IMG/VR virus record: IMGVR_UViG_2609459845_000009
Length of the DNA stretch: 17,583 nucleotides
DNA from: a virus
Lineage: Duplodnaviria; Heunggongvirae; Uroviricota; Caudoviricetes
Strand: one strand, 5' to 3'
Shown: positions 1,667 through 8,500 of the stretch, in pieces
Position numbering within the stretch: position 1 is the stretch's first letter
Layout: each line of letters opens with the position of its first letter
The notes under the pieces: generated by a model
Databases searched by the model: none
Told to the model about the DNA's origin: nothing
Seen by the model: only the letters and a program-made list of their open reading frames with translations
Program-made: the position numbers and the translations under genes

Positions 1667-1686
1667 CACTGTATGTACATACAGTA
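1667..1686. promoter_or_regulatory. LexA (SOS) box CTGT-N8-ACAG upstream of the UmuD'-like gene
   Basis: CACTGTATGTACATACAGTA, an 18-bp perfect palindrome with CTGTATGTACATACAG at 1669-1684, about 18 nt upstream of the start codon at 1651. Confidence 0.7.
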
Positions 1687-1697
1687 CCAATGCATGG

Positions 1698-1740
1698 ATT
1701 TTGATCGTTGCAACCGATCGATTTGAAGATTTTGATCGTT
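1698..1740. repeat. Two 13-bp direct repeats GATTTTGATCGTT (1698-1710, 1728-1740) carrying three GATC sites in the divergent promoter region
   Basis: Read directly; GATC at 1703-1706, 1716-1719, 1734-1737; repeat spacing 30 bp. Confidence 0.45.
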
Positions 1741-1830
1741 ATTTCCCATAACCAAATAGTGAGCAATTTTGGGACATTTATTATAAATTTAAATTGTCTT
1801 TAAATATAAATATCCAATCGGTAAATCATC

Positions 1831-3117
1831 GTGAAAAATAATTCCGCGCTGTTTGTTGGTTCTTTTTTTGAAAGTGACCAAAGCTCAAAAGTAAACCTGG
1901 CATTATCTTATGATGGAGAACGATTCGAAAAAATAAAGGCTCAATTCCTTTGGGCTATTGGTGGAACTGGAGAAGTTTTAGGGAGAGACCCATCAATTAT
2001 TTATCACAACGGTTGGTGGTTAATAGCCGTATCAGGATATACAGAAAACGTTTATGACGTCGATTGCTGGCGCTCACGTGATTTAACCGTGTGGGAACTG
2101 GTACGAATTAAGCTTGGCGATACGCCAGTCTGTGGGAAACGATTACCGGGTTCAGATCTGGTGACCACTGACGTGTGGGCTCCTGAATGGTTTGTTGATG
2201 ACGAAAATCTGTTCCTGATAGTCAGCCTGCGTTATTACAACGATCAGACTGACAGTAAAGGTGTAAATGTCAAAAGTTTTAAAACATTCTATTCTGTCTG
2301 TTCTGATGTTGAGAGACTGGAGTTTTACGATCCGGTTGCGGTAAATATCGAACCAAAAAACATGATTGATTCTGTTTTTTCCAGAATATTCCAGACGTAT
2401 TACCTGACAATAAAAGATGAAATCACCAAAAAAATTGAGGTGTATTGTTCAAATTGTTTCTCAGGACAGTTCACGAAATTATCAGTAATTCCGTTTACTC
2501 AGGCGGCGGAAGGCCCGGCGCTGGTTTATTTGCCGGACGGCACGATCAGAATCTATGCGGATTTTTTCGACACAAAAAAATGGACTTATTTTGTAGACAC
2601 GAAAGACTTCGTGACGTTCACGCCAGAGCGCCCCGTTTTGTTTGACGGCAGAATTAAGCGCGGGACTATTACAAATGTGCTGAACTGGCGCGATAGTGAA
2701 ACCGCATTGCAGCAACTGTCGGCGCTGTTCTGTGCAAACTCCGGGGATTTACAGCCAGGGAAAATCCACAAGCTCATTGATGTAGCGGGAACGAGCAATA
2801 TCAACGCTACTGATTTAATCTGGTGGCCTGAAACTGGACATTGTTATTTCACCGAGGGGTTATCCGGTAACGTGACAATCAATGCGCTGCCAACTGTTTA
2901 CCCGGACGGGAGTTCGTTTTATCTGATGGTCCGAAGCGCAACGCCGGGAGCTGGTGATCTGACGCTTAAACAGGCTGTCGGCGACCTGTACCACCCGGCT
3001 AATGGCATGGCGATATTTGATGCTGATTTGGTAGTGGCGGCTGGCGGGAACGCCGCATCACGTCTGTTTAGAATGGTGTGCTTTGATGGCCAGTTGTGGG
3101 TTGAGGGGGTTTTCTGA
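1831..3117 (+). CDS. Hypothetical 428-aa protein; N-terminal part resembles a GH43-type five-bladed beta-propeller glycoside hydrolase, C-terminal about 140 aa unassigned
   Basis: Long ORF in an AT-rich island; GTG start (first in-frame ATG is far inside). Motifs in GH43-like order: RDPSIIYHNGWWLIAVSGY, DVWAPEW, AEGPALVYLPDG. No signal peptide. Assignment is motif-level only. Confidence 0.5.
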   Translation: MKNNSALFVGSFFESDQSSKVNLALSYDGERFEKIKAQFLWAIGGTGEVLGRDPSIIYHNGWWLIAVSGYTENVYDVDCWRSRDLTVWELVRIKLGDTPVCGKRLPGSDLVTTDVWAPEWFVDDENLFLIVSLRYYNDQTDSKGVNVKSFKTFYSVCSDVERLEFYDPVAVNIEPKNMIDSVFSRIFQTYYLTIKDEITKKIEVYCSNCFSGQFTKLSVIPFTQAAEGPALVYLPDGTIRIYADFFDTKKWTYFVDTKDFVTFTPERPVLFDGRIKRGTITNVLNWRDSETALQQLSALFCANSGDLQPGKIHKLIDVAGTSNINATDLIWWPETGHCYFTEGLSGNVTINALPTVYPDGSSFYLMVRSATPGAGDLTLKQAVGDLYHPANGMAIFDADLVVAAGGNAASRLFRMVCFDGQLWVEGVF

Positions 3118-3151
3118 TATAATTGTGGCTCAATGAAAATTGGGCCACATA

Positions 3152-4213
3152 ATGAACAATAAAATATTTTCCGTCCAGTATCTTCGTGGAATAGCAGCGC
3201 TACTTGTGGTGCTGTACCATTTTTCTTTTTTTACTCCGCGCTGGTTTGCTAATTTATTTGCAAATGGCATGGTGGGCGTTGATATTTTTTTCATTATCTC
3301 TGGATTTATTATTTATTGGTCAACAATAAATCCTGAGGAATGCAGACCAACGGTATTTATTGTTAAACGATTCGCCAGAATATACCCGCTATTTTTTGTT
3401 GTGTTACTGGTTTCGTTGTTATTGCAACCTGCGCCTGCCACACAATTATCCAGGGGTTTTCTGGTTCTGCACAACGATTACACACTACCCGCTCCGGCGT
3501 TTGGATTTAATCTGCTACCGCCCGCGTGGACATTGACTTATGAAATATCGTTCTACGCTATTTTCTGTATGTGCGCTGCAATAACGACCCGGTATCGAGG
3601 TTCATTGTGTATCGCGCTGCTGATTGCAATCCCGGCAGTGCTACAGGTTGCGTTTAATGGAGGGTTGTCGTTTAACAGCACAGTCACCGCTATCCCTCCT
3701 GCTGACTCGCCGTTTTATGGTCTAATCAGGCTGGCAGGCTCAACGATGTTTTATGAGTTTGCGTTTGGGATTATGTCTGGAATGATATTTGAAAGGTTTA
3801 AATTAATTCTTCCTAACTTAACTGCTATTACTATAGCAATATTCGCATCGGCTTTATTTTTCTATTTTTTCTTCACATTCTCAGACCATACCAGCGGTAT
3901 AGAAGGAATGTTCTTTTTTGCTGCAATATTTTTTGTGGGCGTTTTGATGCTGGATAAATCAAAGGCGGGAGAGATAAAAGCATTATCAATTCTTGGCGAC
4001 CTGACATATAGCATTTATCTCTGTCATTGGCTGGTAATGCAGATGGTACAGAAATTTATTCCGATTGGGGAGTATAAGCACTGGGGCGTCCTTGTCCCCT
4101 GCATGCTTGTTGCTTCTCTGATGATGGCATTCGCAGCTAACCGGATAATTGAAAAACCGTTTATCCGTCTGGCCCGTTCGGCGCTGAAACGCCAGGAGAT
4201 TACGACGCGGTAG
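3152..4213 (+). CDS. Acyltransferase family 3 integral membrane protein (OafA/Oac-like O-acetyltransferase)
   Basis: N-terminus MNNKIFSVQYLRGIAALLVVLYHF is the acyltransferase-3 signature; many hydrophobic segments; 34 nt downstream of the 428-aa gene, same strand. ATG 3152 preferred over the track's TTG at 3140. Confidence 0.8.
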   Translation: MNNKIFSVQYLRGIAALLVVLYHFSFFTPRWFANLFANGMVGVDIFFIISGFIIYWSTINPEECRPTVFIVKRFARIYPLFFVVLLVSLLLQPAPATQLSRGFLVLHNDYTLPAPAFGFNLLPPAWTLTYEISFYAIFCMCAAITTRYRGSLCIALLIAIPAVLQVAFNGGLSFNSTVTAIPPADSPFYGLIRLAGSTMFYEFAFGIMSGMIFERFKLILPNLTAITIAIFASALFFYFFFTFSDHTSGIEGMFFFAAIFFVGVLMLDKSKAGEIKALSILGDLTYSIYLCHWLVMQMVQKFIPIGEYKHWGVLVPCMLVASLMMAFAANRIIEKPFIRLARSALKRQEITTR

Positions 4214-4664
4214 CAGGACGTGGCGGCCATTCAAGGCTGTCACTTAATATCGCTGCTTCATCATTAAACTTCATTTTCTTCAAGGCATCGATATGAGCAA
4301 GCCACTCTTTAAAGGTCGCCTTCTCTTCATCGGTGATGATCTCCAGAATGAGCTTAGAAGGCCAGTGTTCGCTGCTTATATATGCGTTAGCCGCAGAGAT
4401 TAACGCATCTCTCTTTGACTCGGCCTGTGCCAGTTTAAGCGCGAACAGTTCTTCTTTAGTTGGCTCGGGAATTTTTTCCCACGCAGGCATGCCGTCTGGC
4501 CCTGCAACCCTTCGCATGCCGTCTTTAACTGTTGGGTAAAATTCGGCGAAAACACCCATATCAACCGGCACAGCATCACTGTATTCGTCCGTCTTTAACA
4601 GAGAGCTTTCCTTGAAAACAAAAGCGTTGCTTTTGGCACTATATAAAAAATCTGAATCAGACAT
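4200..4664 (-). CDS. tfa: Tail fibre assembly protein (Tfa family)
   Basis: 154 aa; position directly downstream of a tail-fibre C-terminal fragment with TAATG stop/start overlap; C-terminal region (DEEKATFKEWLAHIDALKKM...DSLEWPPRP) resembles Tfa chaperones from memory. Confidence 0.7.
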   Translation of the reverse strand: MSDSDFLYSAKSNAFVFKESSLLKTDEYSDAVPVDMGVFAEFYPTVKDGMRRVAGPDGMPAWEKIPEPTKEELFALKLAQAESKRDALISAANAYISSEHWPSKLILEIITDEEKATFKEWLAHIDALKKMKFNDEAAILSDSLEWPPRPATAS

Positions 4665-5099
4665 TACGCTCTCCCGATAGCAATCCAGTTAAAAACTGTT
4701 GGCTGCGCAGTAAAGTTGTGGTCGGACGAACTCCAGGTTGCAGAACGAACATTAAAGCTCCCTGCGTTAACCTTTTCGGCACCATACACGGTTAAGAGTT
4801 GATAGATACCGCCGGAGGCTGTCCATCCAGAGACATGGCCTTCTACTGCAAATACCTGGTATGAGCTCATCGCCACACCCATATTCACATTATAAAATCC
4901 GTTACTGTCCGTTGTACCTACATCCATCTGGATGATCATATTGCCAGGAAGGCGAATAACCACACCAGACCCGGTTGTTGTATAGGTAAAGGATGACATA
5001 TCCGGAACTTGCCCGGTAGCCGGTATAAATCACACACTCTCCGACATACACATCATCCGGATGGGCAAACAGCTCTTGTTTGTCTGTGAGCTCTGCCAT
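4664..5099 (-). pseudogene. stf: Side tail fibre C-terminal remnant, truncated at 5' end and split by a frameshift (65-aa + 111-aa ORFs)
   Basis: Two overlapping minus-strand ORFs in different frames (5099-4902 and 4999-4664), ending at the tfa start; no upstream tail-fibre body or any other structural genes. Confidence 0.5.
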
Positions 5100-5456
5100 T
5101 GTTGGCTCCGTTTATCCGTTAAAAGGGATATCAGTTAAGTTATCCCGTGCAGGGTATAAGCCATTGTCGAGACCACTCATTGAATGGCCTCTGCAATAAC
5201 CGATGTCTTTCCATCAGTCCGCCACAACAAAGAATCTTTTTTGCCATAAGGCAGGAGGTTCATCTTTCAGTGGCTGCCAGTGTTATTTCCCCACTTACTG
5301 GCTTGGGTTGTTTTGTGGTACTGCCGTAACTGGTTGCCAAGAATAAATTCCGGTTTCATTATCAAGCCCACCCGTAGATGGGCTTTGTAATGGATAGCCG
5401 TTGCTCAGTTCTCGTAATGCTTTGATTTTTCCGATAACGCAGTTTTGCGTTTGCCA

Positions 5457-5978
5457 TCAGCACGCGATATCGAGAGTCAACTGCAGTTGCTCGCGCCAGT
5501 ACTCAACATTTGCTTCAATAACCGGCTTATCCCATCGCCAGCGAGCCATCTCTCTTGCCCCATTGCTGGCTTTTGATTTCCGGTCATCGCGAATGCGACA
5601 TGCTTGCTCATATTTCTGCTGCTCAGTCAGTTCACCGCGAAGCAGACTATCAATGTGCAGGTCGCACCACACAGCAAAACGAGCATCACACCAACGGGCA
5701 AATGCAACTGAAAGTTTTGGATGTAGCCACGTACCACCACCCCTGTCCTTTCGTGCCTTGCTGGTTTTTACATACCTCGATTGTGAGGGATGTAAAATTT
5801 GAGATTCTTTCCCGGTCAACGCTTCGTCTAAAGCACGAACGTATTCAAGCGTTTCTGCCAAACGCATCCAGTTATCAATGCGTTTTCCAAATCTCTCAGC
5901 AACACCTGTGACGTTGATCCAACCATCAGTGTTGAAACTGACAATTTCACCTTTGTAATTAAGTGGCACGATATTCAT
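5457..5978 (-). CDS. KilA-N domain protein
   Basis: 173 aa; DGWINVTGVAERFGKRIDNWMRL and GTWLHPKLSVAFARWCDARFAVWCD match the KilA-N (APSES-like) domain pattern. Confidence 0.6.
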   Translation of the reverse strand: MNIVPLNYKGEIVSFNTDGWINVTGVAERFGKRIDNWMRLAETLEYVRALDEALTGKESQILHPSQSRYVKTSKARKDRGGGTWLHPKLSVAFARWCDARFAVWCDLHIDSLLRGELTEQQKYEQACRIRDDRKSKASNGAREMARWRWDKPVIEANVEYWREQLQLTLDIAC

Positions 5979-6091
5979 AACGTTTACCTACCATTTGAAA
6001 TGAACCTTTGCCGCATAGGAAACCAGCCCACCGAGGCTCGCCAGCACTAACTGGTATCCTCAAAGGCCCATTCCAAAGGGGCAGGTTCGGT

Positions 6092-6147
6092 GTAAAAAAC
6101 ATGCGTTGCGGTACGCATTTATTGCAAAAAGCCCCGCATCGCGAGGC
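6092..6147 (-). terminator. Two tandem putative intrinsic terminators downstream of Rz
   Basis: On the minus-strand RNA: hairpin GCCUCGC-GAU-GCGGGGC (6131-6147, one mismatch) followed by UUUUU; then hairpin AUGCGU-ACCGCA-ACGCAU (6101-6118) followed by GUUUUUU. Confidence 0.5.
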
Positions 6148-6179
6148 TCATTAAATTGACTTTGTGATTTGCAAAAAAA

Positions 6180-6638
6180 TTATTTCAGGCATTGCGTCCT
6201 GATGTATTCCTGCAGGTAGTTAACCTGCGCGGTTATCTTGTCGATTCCACTTCGGAGACGGTAATAATTGAGTTCAGCATCTGCTGTAAGTCTTGGGCTT
6301 TCTCCATCGCCCATGCTGCTGGCTCCGGTCGTTGACTTTGCACAGGTGGCGGCGACTTGCAGGCGCTTACGACCAGCAGAAACATCAGCACGGAGACTTT
6401 CGATAGTCGCGTTAGCATCAGCAAGCTCCTTTGTATATCTGGCATCGAGTTCTGCTACATCACGTTGACGCTTCCGCATGTCAGCGATGGTGGCGTTCGC
6501 CTTCTCCAGTTCACTGGCCTTGTTATCGCGCTGCTCTTTGTAGGCGATTGCGTTATCACGGTAATGATTGACCGCCCACGACAGGCAGACGATGATGCAG
6601 ATAACCAGAGCGGAGATAATCGCGGTTAACCGACTCAT
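6180..6638 (-). CDS. Rz: Spanin inner-membrane subunit Rz (lambda Rz-like)
   Basis: [34 protein letters not shown]... closely resembles lambda Rz; internal ATG at 6638 chosen over the ORF-track start at 6767. Confidence 0.9.
6233..6418 (-). CDS. Rz1: Spanin outer-membrane lipoprotein subunit Rz1, embedded in Rz in the +1 frame
   Basis: Embedded ORF with lipobox LLVVSAC followed by a proline-rich stretch [12 protein letters not shown]; start at 6418 or 6385 is uncertain. Confidence 0.7.
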
Positions 6639-6726
6639 GACATCAACACCCCAACGGCCAGAAACCACGGCCACGCATCGTTGCCATTCAATGCGAGCAA
6701 CGCTGCCATGAAAAAGCAAATCATGC

Positions 6727-7230
6727 TCATTGTTGCCCCCACAAACAGACTTCACGCTCAATCTCACGACGGGTCATCAGCCCTTTCCATTGCTTACCGC
6801 CAGCGTATGTCCAGCGCCGTAGCTGATCACATGCGCCCTTGATATCGCCCTGGTTTATTTTGCGAAGAAGCGTCGATGTTCTGAAATTGCCTGTGCCCAC
6901 GTTATAGACGAACGAGTAAAGAGCGCCGCGCGTTGTTTCCGGTATATCGACTTTGATGTACGGGTTAATTTGTCTGGCGACCGTGGCAAGGTCTTTATTC
7001 AGGAGGGCTTTGCATTCTGCTTCGGTATACGTTTTACCGAGCATGATGTCTTTTCCGGTGTGTCCGTGGCATACAGTCCATACACCAACAATATCTTTGT
7101 ATGGTATGTAGCTGACACCTTCCAGACCATCGTTACCACTCGGTCCAGTGATTAACACAGATGCTATAGCAATAGCCCCGCCACTTATCGCCGCTATTAC
7201 GCTATTTCGTAGTGCCGGTGACATTGCCAT
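6727..7230 (-). CDS. R: SAR endolysin (phage lysozyme, T4-lysozyme/GH24 type; P21 R / RrrD-like)
   Basis: N-terminal Gly/Ala-rich weakly hydrophobic segment [16 protein letters not shown] (signal-anchor-release type) followed by [25 protein letters not shown] catalytic region. Confidence 0.9.
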
Positions 7231-7822: not shown

Positions 7823-7975
7823 CTACCGGATATCCCACAGGTGAGCTGTGTAATTGAAGATTTTTACGTCAGATTCTTTTGGGATTGGCTTGCGTTTATT
7901 TCTGGAGCGTTTCGTTGGAAGGTATTTGCAGTTTTCGCAGATGATGTCGGTGAAACTTCGTCGCTGTCGCCTCAT
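7823..7975 (-). CDS. ninE: NinE
   Basis: [50 protein letters not shown] resembles lambda NinE; ATGA overlap with the upstream Dam reading frame. Confidence 0.75.
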
Positions 7976-8500
7976 GCCGCCCTCCTGACGCCCTGCCCGA
8001 TCGCCATCAATGCCGCTTTGGATACGGTAGTAAACATCCGTCGAGGACTGATGAACGGTCGCCAAATCAGCAGCATGGAGCCTTTGCTGTTTCCCTTCTT
8101 CTCCAGCCCTGTCGATGGTTCGATAAAATTAATCCGTCCATCAGTGATAATGCGAACTTCGTCGACACTCTCCAGAGCCTTGCTGAACCATCCGACTGAC
8201 ATATCCTCTGGCACAAGCATAACTACCGTCTGTCGCTGTTGTATGCACTGCTCAGCGGCTTTTTCCACCCACGGCCTGATATTGCTGTACGGTGGGTTAT
8301 TCCAGATTGCACCGTGGCTTATCCACTCAGAATTTAGCGCGTCGTCGGCCTCAGTTAACCAGTGAGCGCACAGAGCATTTTTTGTCGCTCGCTGCCGAAT
8401 CCAGCCAGAATCCAAACTCAATATCCAGTGCATCAAAAAGCCAAAGCGGCGTTTGCCAGCAGTCCTTGTCGTGTGCTGGCGTATTTGATTTGATAGTCAT
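7972..8500 (-). pseudogene. Phage-type DNA N6-adenine methyltransferase (Dam) interrupted by a frameshift in an A6 run
   Basis: N-terminal frame (8500-8351) has MTIKSNTPAHDKDCWQTPLWLFDALDIEFGFWLDSAASD; C-terminal frame (to 7972) has NALCAHWLTEADD...NNPPYS (motif IV). The frames meet at T6 on plus strand 8378-8383; removing one A restores a continuous protein. Confidence 0.7.

Follow-up and report, generated by a model that had tools for sequence, protein, structure and literature searches.

A cluster of three GATC sites that resembles the Dam- and OxyR-controlled operators of Mu mom and agn43 was found next to the LexA box of a UmuD'-like prophage gene in the 17,583-nt stretch of DNA analysed here (hereafter, the window). 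On balance, we lean towards the reading in which this mom/agn43-class Dam–OxyR operator would place the SOS-controlled UmuD'-like gene under an additional, epigenetic lock. The original prediction had taken the site to be the promoter of the divergent cargo operon, which was probably a mis-assignment, as the site recurs with a LexA box and a UmuD'-like or small gene. The comparisons below show directly how the site is built, that it resembles validated sites and that it recurs together with LexA boxes, and the recurring combination of a predicted OxyR/Dam operator with a LexA box appears to be its notable feature.

The window covers an E. coli chromosome-prophage junction, with the 3' part of dacD at its left end and prophage sequence from about position 1200. 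In other assemblies too, this prophage end adjoins dacD, sbmC and yeeA; GCA_049343005.1, GCA_028635825.1 and GCA_049205735.1 are assemblies in which it is present. Phage HK140 has an attP region similar to positions 1200-1318, and its att site is likewise overlapped by a UmuD-like gene; among the GenBank phages, the match was limited to this att-site end and no annotated relatives were found. To the right of the cargo genes lie a tail-fibre assembly gene, a tail-fibre fragment, KilA-N and lysis genes, followed by nin, replication, immunity and recombination regions that are phage-434-like lambdoid. After induction, the Dam-family methylase encoded in the nin region may also contribute to GATC methylation. 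The intergenic region between the UmuD'-like ORF and the cargo is 179 bp long and identical in all nine other public copies of the prophage end, so variation within the lineage was uninformative. Searches of 5,426 complete E. coli genomes returned no close copies by megablast with positions 1500-2000, and nothing significant by sensitive blastn with the intergenic region. The intergenic region had no Rfam match at gathering thresholds, and the sub-threshold matches were to unrelated eukaryotic RNA families only (E 0.3-0.8). A 50-aa ORF at 1614-1766 was rejected as a gene for want of support.

Table 1 Positions and strands of the features in the window; features on the minus strand are written in their reading direction where two positions are joined by "to".
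Feature	Position	Strand	Remark
UmuD'-like gene, 132 aa, S24 family	1253-1651, ATG at 1651	-	3' end overlaps HK140 att-site homology
LexA box CTGTATGTACATACAG (1684 to 1669), overlapped by -10-like TACTGT (1686 to 1681)	1669-1686	-	
13-mer copy 1, GATTTTGATCGTT, with GATC 1703-1706	1697-1709	+	Predicted arm of the proximal half-site (nearest the UmuD'-like promoter)
Whole predicted OxyR-type operator	1704-1749	-	GATC spacing 18/13 on this strand
Proximal predicted half-site ATCGGTTGCAACGAT	1718 to 1704	-	8/10 to consensus
TTGCAA, candidate -35 of the UmuD'-like promoter, inside the proximal half-site	1708-1713	-	Placed by its spacing to the -10 region
Middle GATC	1716-1719		Pairs with GATC 1703 as GATC-N9-GATC (ATCG-N7-CGAT)
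13-mer copy 2, GATTTTGATCGTT, with GATC 1734-1737	1728-1740	+	Predicted equivalent arm of the distal half-site
Distal predicted half-site ATGGGAAATAACGAT	1749 to 1735	-	7/10 to ATAGnTnnnAnCTAT
Possible third OxyR-like half-site ATAGTGAGCAATTTT	1756-1770	+	7/10; on the cargo side, 21 bp beyond the distal half-site
Cargo gene 1, 428 aa, weak glycoside-hydrolase 43/32-like match	1831-3117, GTG at 1831	+	
Cargo gene 2, Acyl_transf_3 / O-acetyltransferase-like membrane protein	3140-4213	+	
Dam-family adenine methyltransferase (PF05869), prophage-encoded, nin region	7972-8436	-	Pfam scan

The three GATC sites (1703-1706, 1716-1719 and 1734-1737) span 35 bp. As originally predicted, the repeats lie between the LexA box (1669-1684) and the cargo start (1831), a third GATC sits between the two 13-mers (at 1716-1719), and the 13-mers are exact copies of each other; the separation of 30 bp given for them had to be corrected, as their starts are 31 bp apart and the gap from one copy to the next is 18 bp. 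With up to one mismatch allowed, no further copy of GATTTTGATCGTT was detected in the window. On the minus strand, where the site reads AACGATCAAAATCTTCAAATCGATCGGTTGCAACGATC, the GATCs are met at 1737 to 1734, 1719 to 1716 and 1706 to 1703. Each 13-mer supplies the equivalent arm of one of two predicted OxyR-type half-sites (1704-1718 and 1735-1749), and this equivalence explains a direct repeat three helical turns apart: the half-sites are themselves 31 bp apart start to start, within a putative operator of 46 bp that carries three GATCs.

Against the OxyR half-site consensus, ATAGxTxxxAxCTAT after correction of a typographical error in the paper (PMC2909390), the window site scored 8/10 and 7/10, compared with 8 and 8 for agn43, 7 and 7 for mom, and 8 each for gtr A and C. 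A half-site pair reaching at least 15/20 at the allowed spacings was present in 28% of simulated windows, so the OxyR consensus score alone is not decisive. The reference Dam/OxyR regions that we compared with the window, those of agn43, Mu mom and P22 gtr, are all experimentally characterised. When a 54-nt Mu mom probe was used, the best match in the window on either strand was the site itself (1752 to 1699, 34/54 identities), and the best matches in 300 simulated windows averaged 28.0 ± 1.0 with a highest value of 32; outside the GATCs, mom and the window site are identical at 22 of 42 positions. The central GATC pair (GATCGGTTGCAACGATCAA) is identical at 18 of 21 positions to the P22 gtr OxyR(A) half-site, as seen when TCGATCGGTTGCAACGATCAA is set against gtr OxyR(A) TTGATCGGTAACAACGATCAA. 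The proposal of a Dam/OxyR-type site was thus borne out by the three-GATC geometry of mom and agn43 and by the near-identical gtr OxyR(A) pair, a support that is confined to sequence, and the regulator class is probably Dam/OxyR.

It is very unlikely, in our view, that the GATCs and 13-mers reflect chance or hitch-hiking, for example by a local duplication around a TTGATC-like -35. Although GATC is depleted in the window (50 found against 68.9 ± 7.8 expected), 15% of random placements put three GATCs within 35 bp or less somewhere in 17.6 kb, which makes the cluster by itself weak evidence. The specific arrangement is rarer: a GATC triple with the mom/agn43-type spacing of 18-19/13 appeared in 11 of 3000 simulated windows, and an exact 13-mer direct repeat within 50 nt in 41 of 3000. 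The undistinctive match to the OxyR consensus would suit a chance origin, as would TTGATC being the usual -35 of umuD-type promoters and the absence of the element from most relatives; against it, the mom match beat all 300 simulated windows and the same invariant columns recur in divergent loci.

The site of Mu mom (ACGATCGAATCAATTAAATCGATCGGTAATACAGATC) shares with the window site, besides the overall identity given above, a GATC spacing of 18/13 and an identical 12-mer (AAATCGATCGGT); the 13-bp pair is nearest the regulated gene in both, and both lie in a prophage. The mom site ends about 43 nt before its -10 and the promoter needs the C activator, whereas in the window 16 nt separate the end of the site from the -10-like TACTGT, the predicted -35 falls within the site and the LexA box comes next. 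The regulated gene is a DNA-modification gene in mom and would be a UmuD' analogue in the window. In agn43 (flu; AACGATCAATATCTATTTTATCGATCGTTTATATCGATCGAT), there is likewise a single three-GATC OxyR site, with a spacing of 19/13, so that the first spacing of the window site is one base shorter, and the two sites have the same ATAG/ATGG-N7-CGATC ... ATCGATCG-N8-GATC layout. They differ in position: the annotated IsrC leader RNA of agn43 starts at the first GATC, which puts that OxyR site at the transcript start or downstream of it, whereas the window site is upstream of and over the predicted -35. The agn43 -10 at that place is presumably TAGAAT; the upstream quarter-site of the window is ATGG, not ATAG, so an agn43-like -10 is absent. 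An agn43-like promoter just upstream of the first minus-strand GATC was considered and rejected, since the conserved ATGG there fits an OxyR quarter-site and no -10 is conserved. OxyR acts as a repressor at agn43, and methylation abrogates its binding (PMC2909390). Operators of this class have their GATCs in the arms of two half-sites that together form the site of one OxyR tetramer, and OxyR, once bound, protects those GATCs from Dam.

The P22 and Salmonella gtr regions resemble the window site in their GATC-N9-GATC half-sites, a pair also present in agn43 and mom and found in both gtr OxyR(A) and OxyR(C), in their half-site spacing of 31-32 bp, and in lying at a prophage end beside O-antigen modification genes. 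They have three equally spaced half-sites (A, B and C) and four GATCs arranged as two pairs, which offer OxyR either an activating or a repressing position, and they have no LexA box; the window has two clear half-sites, three GATCs and a weak candidate for a third half-site. A gtr-type three-half-site switch was therefore rejected on the count of three GATCs and two clear half-sites. The best candidate for a third half-site is 21 bp away (32 in gtr) and lacks a GATC, and is at most a weak lead. Salmonella opvAB is a horizontally acquired surface-modifying locus under OxyR and Dam control, with four OxyR sites and four GATCs, a layout absent from the window.

The gene on the minus strand is related to umuD. 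Its product matched PF00717 (27.7 bits, cut-off 23.3) and the 'UmuD-like' phrog_811 (2e-40), and its residues 6-119 align to residues 25-136 of E. coli UmuD (8gmt_B, 2.4e-15; 1umu UmuD', 3e-15). The N-terminus corresponds to the post-cleavage start GFPSPAADY, and an alignment that starts from UmuD residue 25 indicates that the protein begins where RecA-mediated cleavage leaves UmuD'. Phage P1 HumD has the same ready-made UmuD' form. The LexA box is perfect (CTGT-N8-ACAG) and stands 17 nt from the ATG, an arrangement kept in the homologous loci, and it overlaps a TACTGT -10 as in umuDC-type SOS promoters. The UmuD'-like gene thus appears to have the promoter architecture of a LexA-regulated (SOS) gene. 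Standard umuD-type promoters differ from it in having a TTGATC -35, at most one or two GATCs, and no 46-bp three-GATC OxyR-like operator.

The -10 of the UmuD'-like promoter is poor and the consensus promoter scan found no promoter on either strand, so the promoters were assigned by alignment to homologous regions. Four such regulatory regions share an invariant TTGC at the expected -35 position (TTGCnn-18-TATACT in three of the loci; TTGCAA with a weaker -10 in the window), which places every plausible -35 inside the proximal half-site, whether TTGCAA (1713 to 1708) or ACGATC (1708 to 1703). On the minus strand, the predicted operator would cover the -35 region and ends 18 nt before the LexA box. 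With transcription assumed to begin some 7 nt downstream of TACTGT, the proximal pair of GATCs would be at about -45/-32; in gtr, GATC3 and GATC4 of the repressing OxyR(C) pair are at -46/-33, where OxyR represses (PMC2909390).

Viral contigs were searched with the GATC geometry of the element alone (ACGATC-N11/12-ATCGATCG-N8-GATC). This pattern matched 41 viral contigs, most of them Mu-like mom regions, along with about a dozen other sequence types that include the window site. Several comparison loci came from patterns that force the GATC positions, so the independent evidence consists of the unforced columns and the gene context only. Across the ten sequence classes into which the matches were grouped, the unforced columns of the distal half-site were A1 in 10/10, T2 in 10/10, G4 in 9/10, T6 in 7/10 and A10 in 9/10, and those of the proximal half-site were T6 in 10/10 and A10 in 8/10, which are the OxyR consensus bases. 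In most other classes, as at mom and agn43, it is the 13-bp-spaced pair that faces the gene, and the orientation of the window site agrees with mom and agn43 only when it is read towards the UmuD'-like gene.

In several unrelated prophages, the element recurs at an unchanged distance from a LexA box and Shine-Dalgarno sequence, before other genes. In two of these classes (L032 and L047), the LexA box stands 15 nt beyond the element (16 nt in the window, measured to TACTGT), and next come a Shine-Dalgarno sequence and a UmuD'-like gene of 107 aa, whose product has an FPSPAxDY start, belongs to phrog_3469 and is 31-34% identical to the window protein. Upstream of the element in these loci is the end of a same-strand tail-fibre gene, with no divergent gene, and downstream of the UmuD'-like gene is host DNA. 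At a prophage end in L177, a metagenome-assembled genome of an uncultured Enterobacterales bacterium from the representative-genome scan, the element and a LexA box are followed by a small phrog_2100 gene, and in the lambdoid nin region of two metagenome contigs (L272 and L284) by an sRNA-like unit; the likeness of this unit to the agn43 leader RNA family is weak (RF00124, 27 bits, below threshold). In the four-way alignment, ATGG, CGATC, ATCGATCG, TTGC, CGATCAA and the LexA box are invariant, and the flanks diverge. Elsewhere, the element neighbours a divergent family-25 LPS glycosyltransferase (L021), an EAL-domain protein (L022) or a DUF968–Q antiterminator pair (L043). Operators of the mom/agn43 type thus seem to be reused as portable modules before varied prophage accessory genes.

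Only a minority of such UmuD'-like genes carry the element as a module. Among close relatives of L032, it was present in only 3 of 77 distinct upstream regions; a LexA box stands directly upstream in 34 of the 77, most with an umuDC-type TTGATC-17/18-TACTGT promoter, and the other 40 regions fall inside the upstream gene, with the regulatory region out of view. The locus encoding the closest relative of the window UmuD'-like protein (L060, 89% identity) keeps GTTGCAACGtTC and has lost the GATCs, and HK140-type phages have the LexA box without the GATC cluster. In about 27 Enterobacterales species, TTGATC-N8-CGATC-N5-TACTGT...ACAG occurs before umuD, umuD', gp27-like or umuC-like genes, indicating that GATC pairs are common in umuD-type core promoters, although the GATCs were forced in this search.

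The conserved columns bear on which protein reads the repeats. Many DNA-binding proteins that act as dimers or oligomers could use identical 13-mers spaced by three helical turns, so the repeats might be operators of a protein other than OxyR, such as Lrp in a pap-type arrangement or a phage-encoded regulator. We regard this as highly improbable, since the 13-mer itself is not conserved in the homologous elements and only the OxyR-consensus columns are. Control of the pap type by Dam and Lrp, which the original prediction had offered beside OxyR, is excluded: the likeness to the pap family is limited to Dam sites in a regulatory region, and there is neither a GATC pair 102 bp apart nor a pap-type box. 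The nearest further GATC (1595) is 108 bp from 1703 and lies inside a coding region, and the box in the window (CGATCAAAA) is different from what we take to be the pap box (CGATCTTTT). The Pfam scans of the window ORFs detected no PapI- or PapB-like gene. The defining features of pap-type control are two GATC boxes 102 bp apart in Lrp sites and a PapI-like co-regulator (PMC2909390).

A reading that would also accept Dam sensitivity of the site, and that we hold to be quite unlikely, dispenses with heritable ON/OFF states. OxyR or SeqA would then modulate the promoter according to methylation level, and expression would be coupled to replication, to the Dam supply, or to the prophage Dam after induction. 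The outer GATCs are 31 bp apart and so on the same helical face, which suits SeqA on hemimethylated DNA, and this spacing, the prophage Dam-family methylase (7972-8436) and the 27 or so Enterobacterales species with GATC-N9-GATC in umuD-type core promoters, which suggest a general methylation input, are all points for modulation. The GATC spacing is moreover identical to that of Mu mom, for which Dam/OxyR control is established and phase variation is not (PMC2909390). However, agn43, with 19/13 as against 18/13 here, does phase-vary, and the sequence does not tell the two outcomes apart.

The cargo operon was then considered as the unit under control. Its first gene encodes a very rare protein (4 clusters among 5.8 billion) with homology to the C-terminal region of a Serratia tail-fibre protein. 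Positions 1750-1830 are AT-rich and hold no recognisable promoter, and a candidate cargo promoter inside the element (-35 TTGCAA, -10 TTTGAT) was rejected for lack of the essential -11 A. That the GATC site is a Dam/OxyR phase-variation switch of the divergent cargo operon, with the UmuD'-like gene a mere neighbour, seems to us unlikely, though several observations are in line with it. The site is 81 nt upstream of the cargo start codon in a region of 33% G+C (1651-1950), and the AT richness without a consensus promoter makes activator dependence of the cargo plausible. OxyR is a LysR-type regulator, and such regulators classically work at divergent promoters, which would suit control of the cargo. 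Relative to a candidate TAAATT -10 at 1790-1795, OxyR on the third half-site, if real, would occupy about -67 to -32, an activator-like position; the element adjoins a divergent family-25 LPS glycosyltransferase in L021, and phage O-antigen modification genes can be Dam/OxyR phase-variable, as shown by the gtr precedent (PMC2909390).

Comparative support for cargo control was, however, nil. Upstream of a 78%-identical cargo homologue (L007), the sequence is unrelated over the 86 bp visible before the contig ends, and no further cargo loci for footprinting were recovered, including from the 61% homologue and the representative-genome scan. The element recurs without an adjoining divergent gene (L032 and L047), it keeps a fixed distance to the LexA box and not to the cargo, and no cargo promoter could be identified in 1750-1830. 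Phase variation of the cargo is therefore a possibility that stands below the UmuD'-like reading in support.

The site could, more speculatively, be a two-way epigenetic toggle common to the divergent UmuD'-like and cargo promoters, an idea that we rate as doubtful. In the unmethylated state, OxyR on 1704-1718 and 1735-1749 would shut the SOS-inducible UmuD'-like promoter, and OxyR there, or on 1735-1749 and 1756-1770, would also activate a silent O-antigen-modification cargo; methylation would give the reverse pattern. If true, a single heritable mark would sort lysogens into 'surface-modified, non-mutable' and 'unmodified, SOS-mutable' cells.

In the favoured reading, the epigenetic lock on the UmuD'-like promoter, we infer OxyR binding, methylation sensitivity, a repressing sign and heritable switching at the site. 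When the site is unmethylated, OxyR would bind, shield the three GATCs from Dam and occlude the -35, and the UmuD'-like gene would stay off even when LexA is cleaved. When it is methylated, OxyR would be excluded, leaving the UmuD'-like promoter under LexA alone and SOS-inducible. Each methylation state would tend to reproduce itself, so lysogens would form sub-populations able or unable to induce the UmuD'-like protein in the SOS response, and the prophage Dam-family methylase could force the methylated state after induction. A site at about -75 to -30 also fits OxyR as an activator, which makes the sign of the effect uncertain.

A search of the literature on Dam, OxyR or GATC together with prophages, umuD or humD, with subscription journals mostly outside its scope, returned no Dam/OxyR site at a UmuD-like or SOS promoter and only the known gtr, opvAB and agn43 work; two methylome studies likewise describe no such sites. 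These comparisons also correct the view of the O-antigen acetyltransferase cargo as the phase-variable unit, which should be tested and not assumed. If the site works as predicted, a prophage-encoded accessory factor of the error-prone DNA polymerase V would be under both the SOS repressor and a heritable methylation mark, and after DNA damage the capacity for mutagenesis could rise in only a fraction of a clonal population. This would be epigenetic bet-hedging linked directly to mutability, a link on which we found no paper. The 'OxyR/Dam operator plus LexA box', recovered in five sequence classes, would then be a portable composite promoter module in enterobacterial prophages.

Three-GATC OxyR-type modules were also detected at other genes in the comparison contigs. 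Such a module lies directly upstream of an EAL-domain gene in L022 (106-142) and of a DUF968 gene in L043 (778-815), the latter followed by the gene for the late-gene antiterminator Q, and a third module adjoins a divergent family-25 LPS glycosyltransferase gene in L021 (3355-3391). In two further contigs (L284, 3850-4030; L272, 265-312), a three-GATC OxyR-type element and a umuDC-like LexA box (TACTGTATATAAAAACAG) precede a unit of ~120 nt that contains no ORF and ends in a terminator-like hairpin. This unit showed a sub-threshold match (27 bits, E 0.01) to the Rfam family IS102/IsrC, the agn43 leader RNA, and it may be a small RNA under SOS and methylation control.

The core-promoter layout cTTGATC-N8-CGATC-N5-TACTGT-N8-ACAG, with two GATCs 13 bp apart across the -35 and the spacer, is shared by ~27 Enterobacterales genomes (L138-L190; e.g., Pantoea, Enterobacter and Franconibacter), though the GATCs were imposed by the search pattern and their recurrence thus says nothing on conservation. 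The genes that follow this layout are umuD, umuD'-like, gp27-like and umuC-like. At the UmuD'-like locus of contig L136 (~1300-1340), a promoter-proximal GATC-N9-GATC pair sits beside the LexA box, and a second GATC triple with 18/13 spacing is located ~100 bp upstream of this pair. Seven GATCs were found in an intergenic region of a CP4-like island of E. coli (NZ_CM194533.1; L016, 2440-2625), which includes TTGATCGTTATTTTC, similar to window 1731-1745, and has hypothetical genes downstream; this may be a further methylation-sensitive regulatory region.

The 16-bp LexA box upstream of the UmuD'-like gene in the window forms the middle of a near-perfect palindrome of 32 bp (1661-1692; CATTGGCACTGTATGT / ACATACAGTACCAATG, 94% complementary) that reaches far past the box; at the homologous loci it was not observed. 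At its 3' end, the UmuD'-like gene overlaps a region (1200-1318) that is 91-96% identical to attP in HK140, mEp234, HK544 and a number of Stx phages, and therefore integration restores the C-terminus of the gene product (...GEFDDYPLK).

The first cargo protein (1831-3117) is extremely rare: a search of 5.8 billion proteins yielded 4 clusters, and one of 185,579 representative genomes yielded no match. It shares homology with the C-terminal portion of a Serratia tail-fibre protein of 715 aa (31% over 88%) and also with a PHROG annotated as 'tail protein', and may have its origin in a receptor-binding or depolymerase domain rather than be a classical O-antigen-modifying enzyme.

The prophage in the window looks defective. 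No terminase, head or tail genes were found in it, and a tail-fibre fragment and a tail-fibre assembly gene come almost straight after Rz and KilA-N (window 4200-6200). The structural region is retained to differing extents in the related assemblies L008-L012.

Prophage features and their positions in the window
Feature	Window	Strand	Remarks
Tail-fibre fragment	4664-4999		111 aa
KilA-N	5457-5978		
Rz	6180-6767		
Dam-family N6-adenine methyltransferase	7972-8436	minus	PF05869, 1.7e-49; nin region of prophage

If the methyltransferase encoded by the prophage recognises GATC, the methylation state of the operator would change upon induction.
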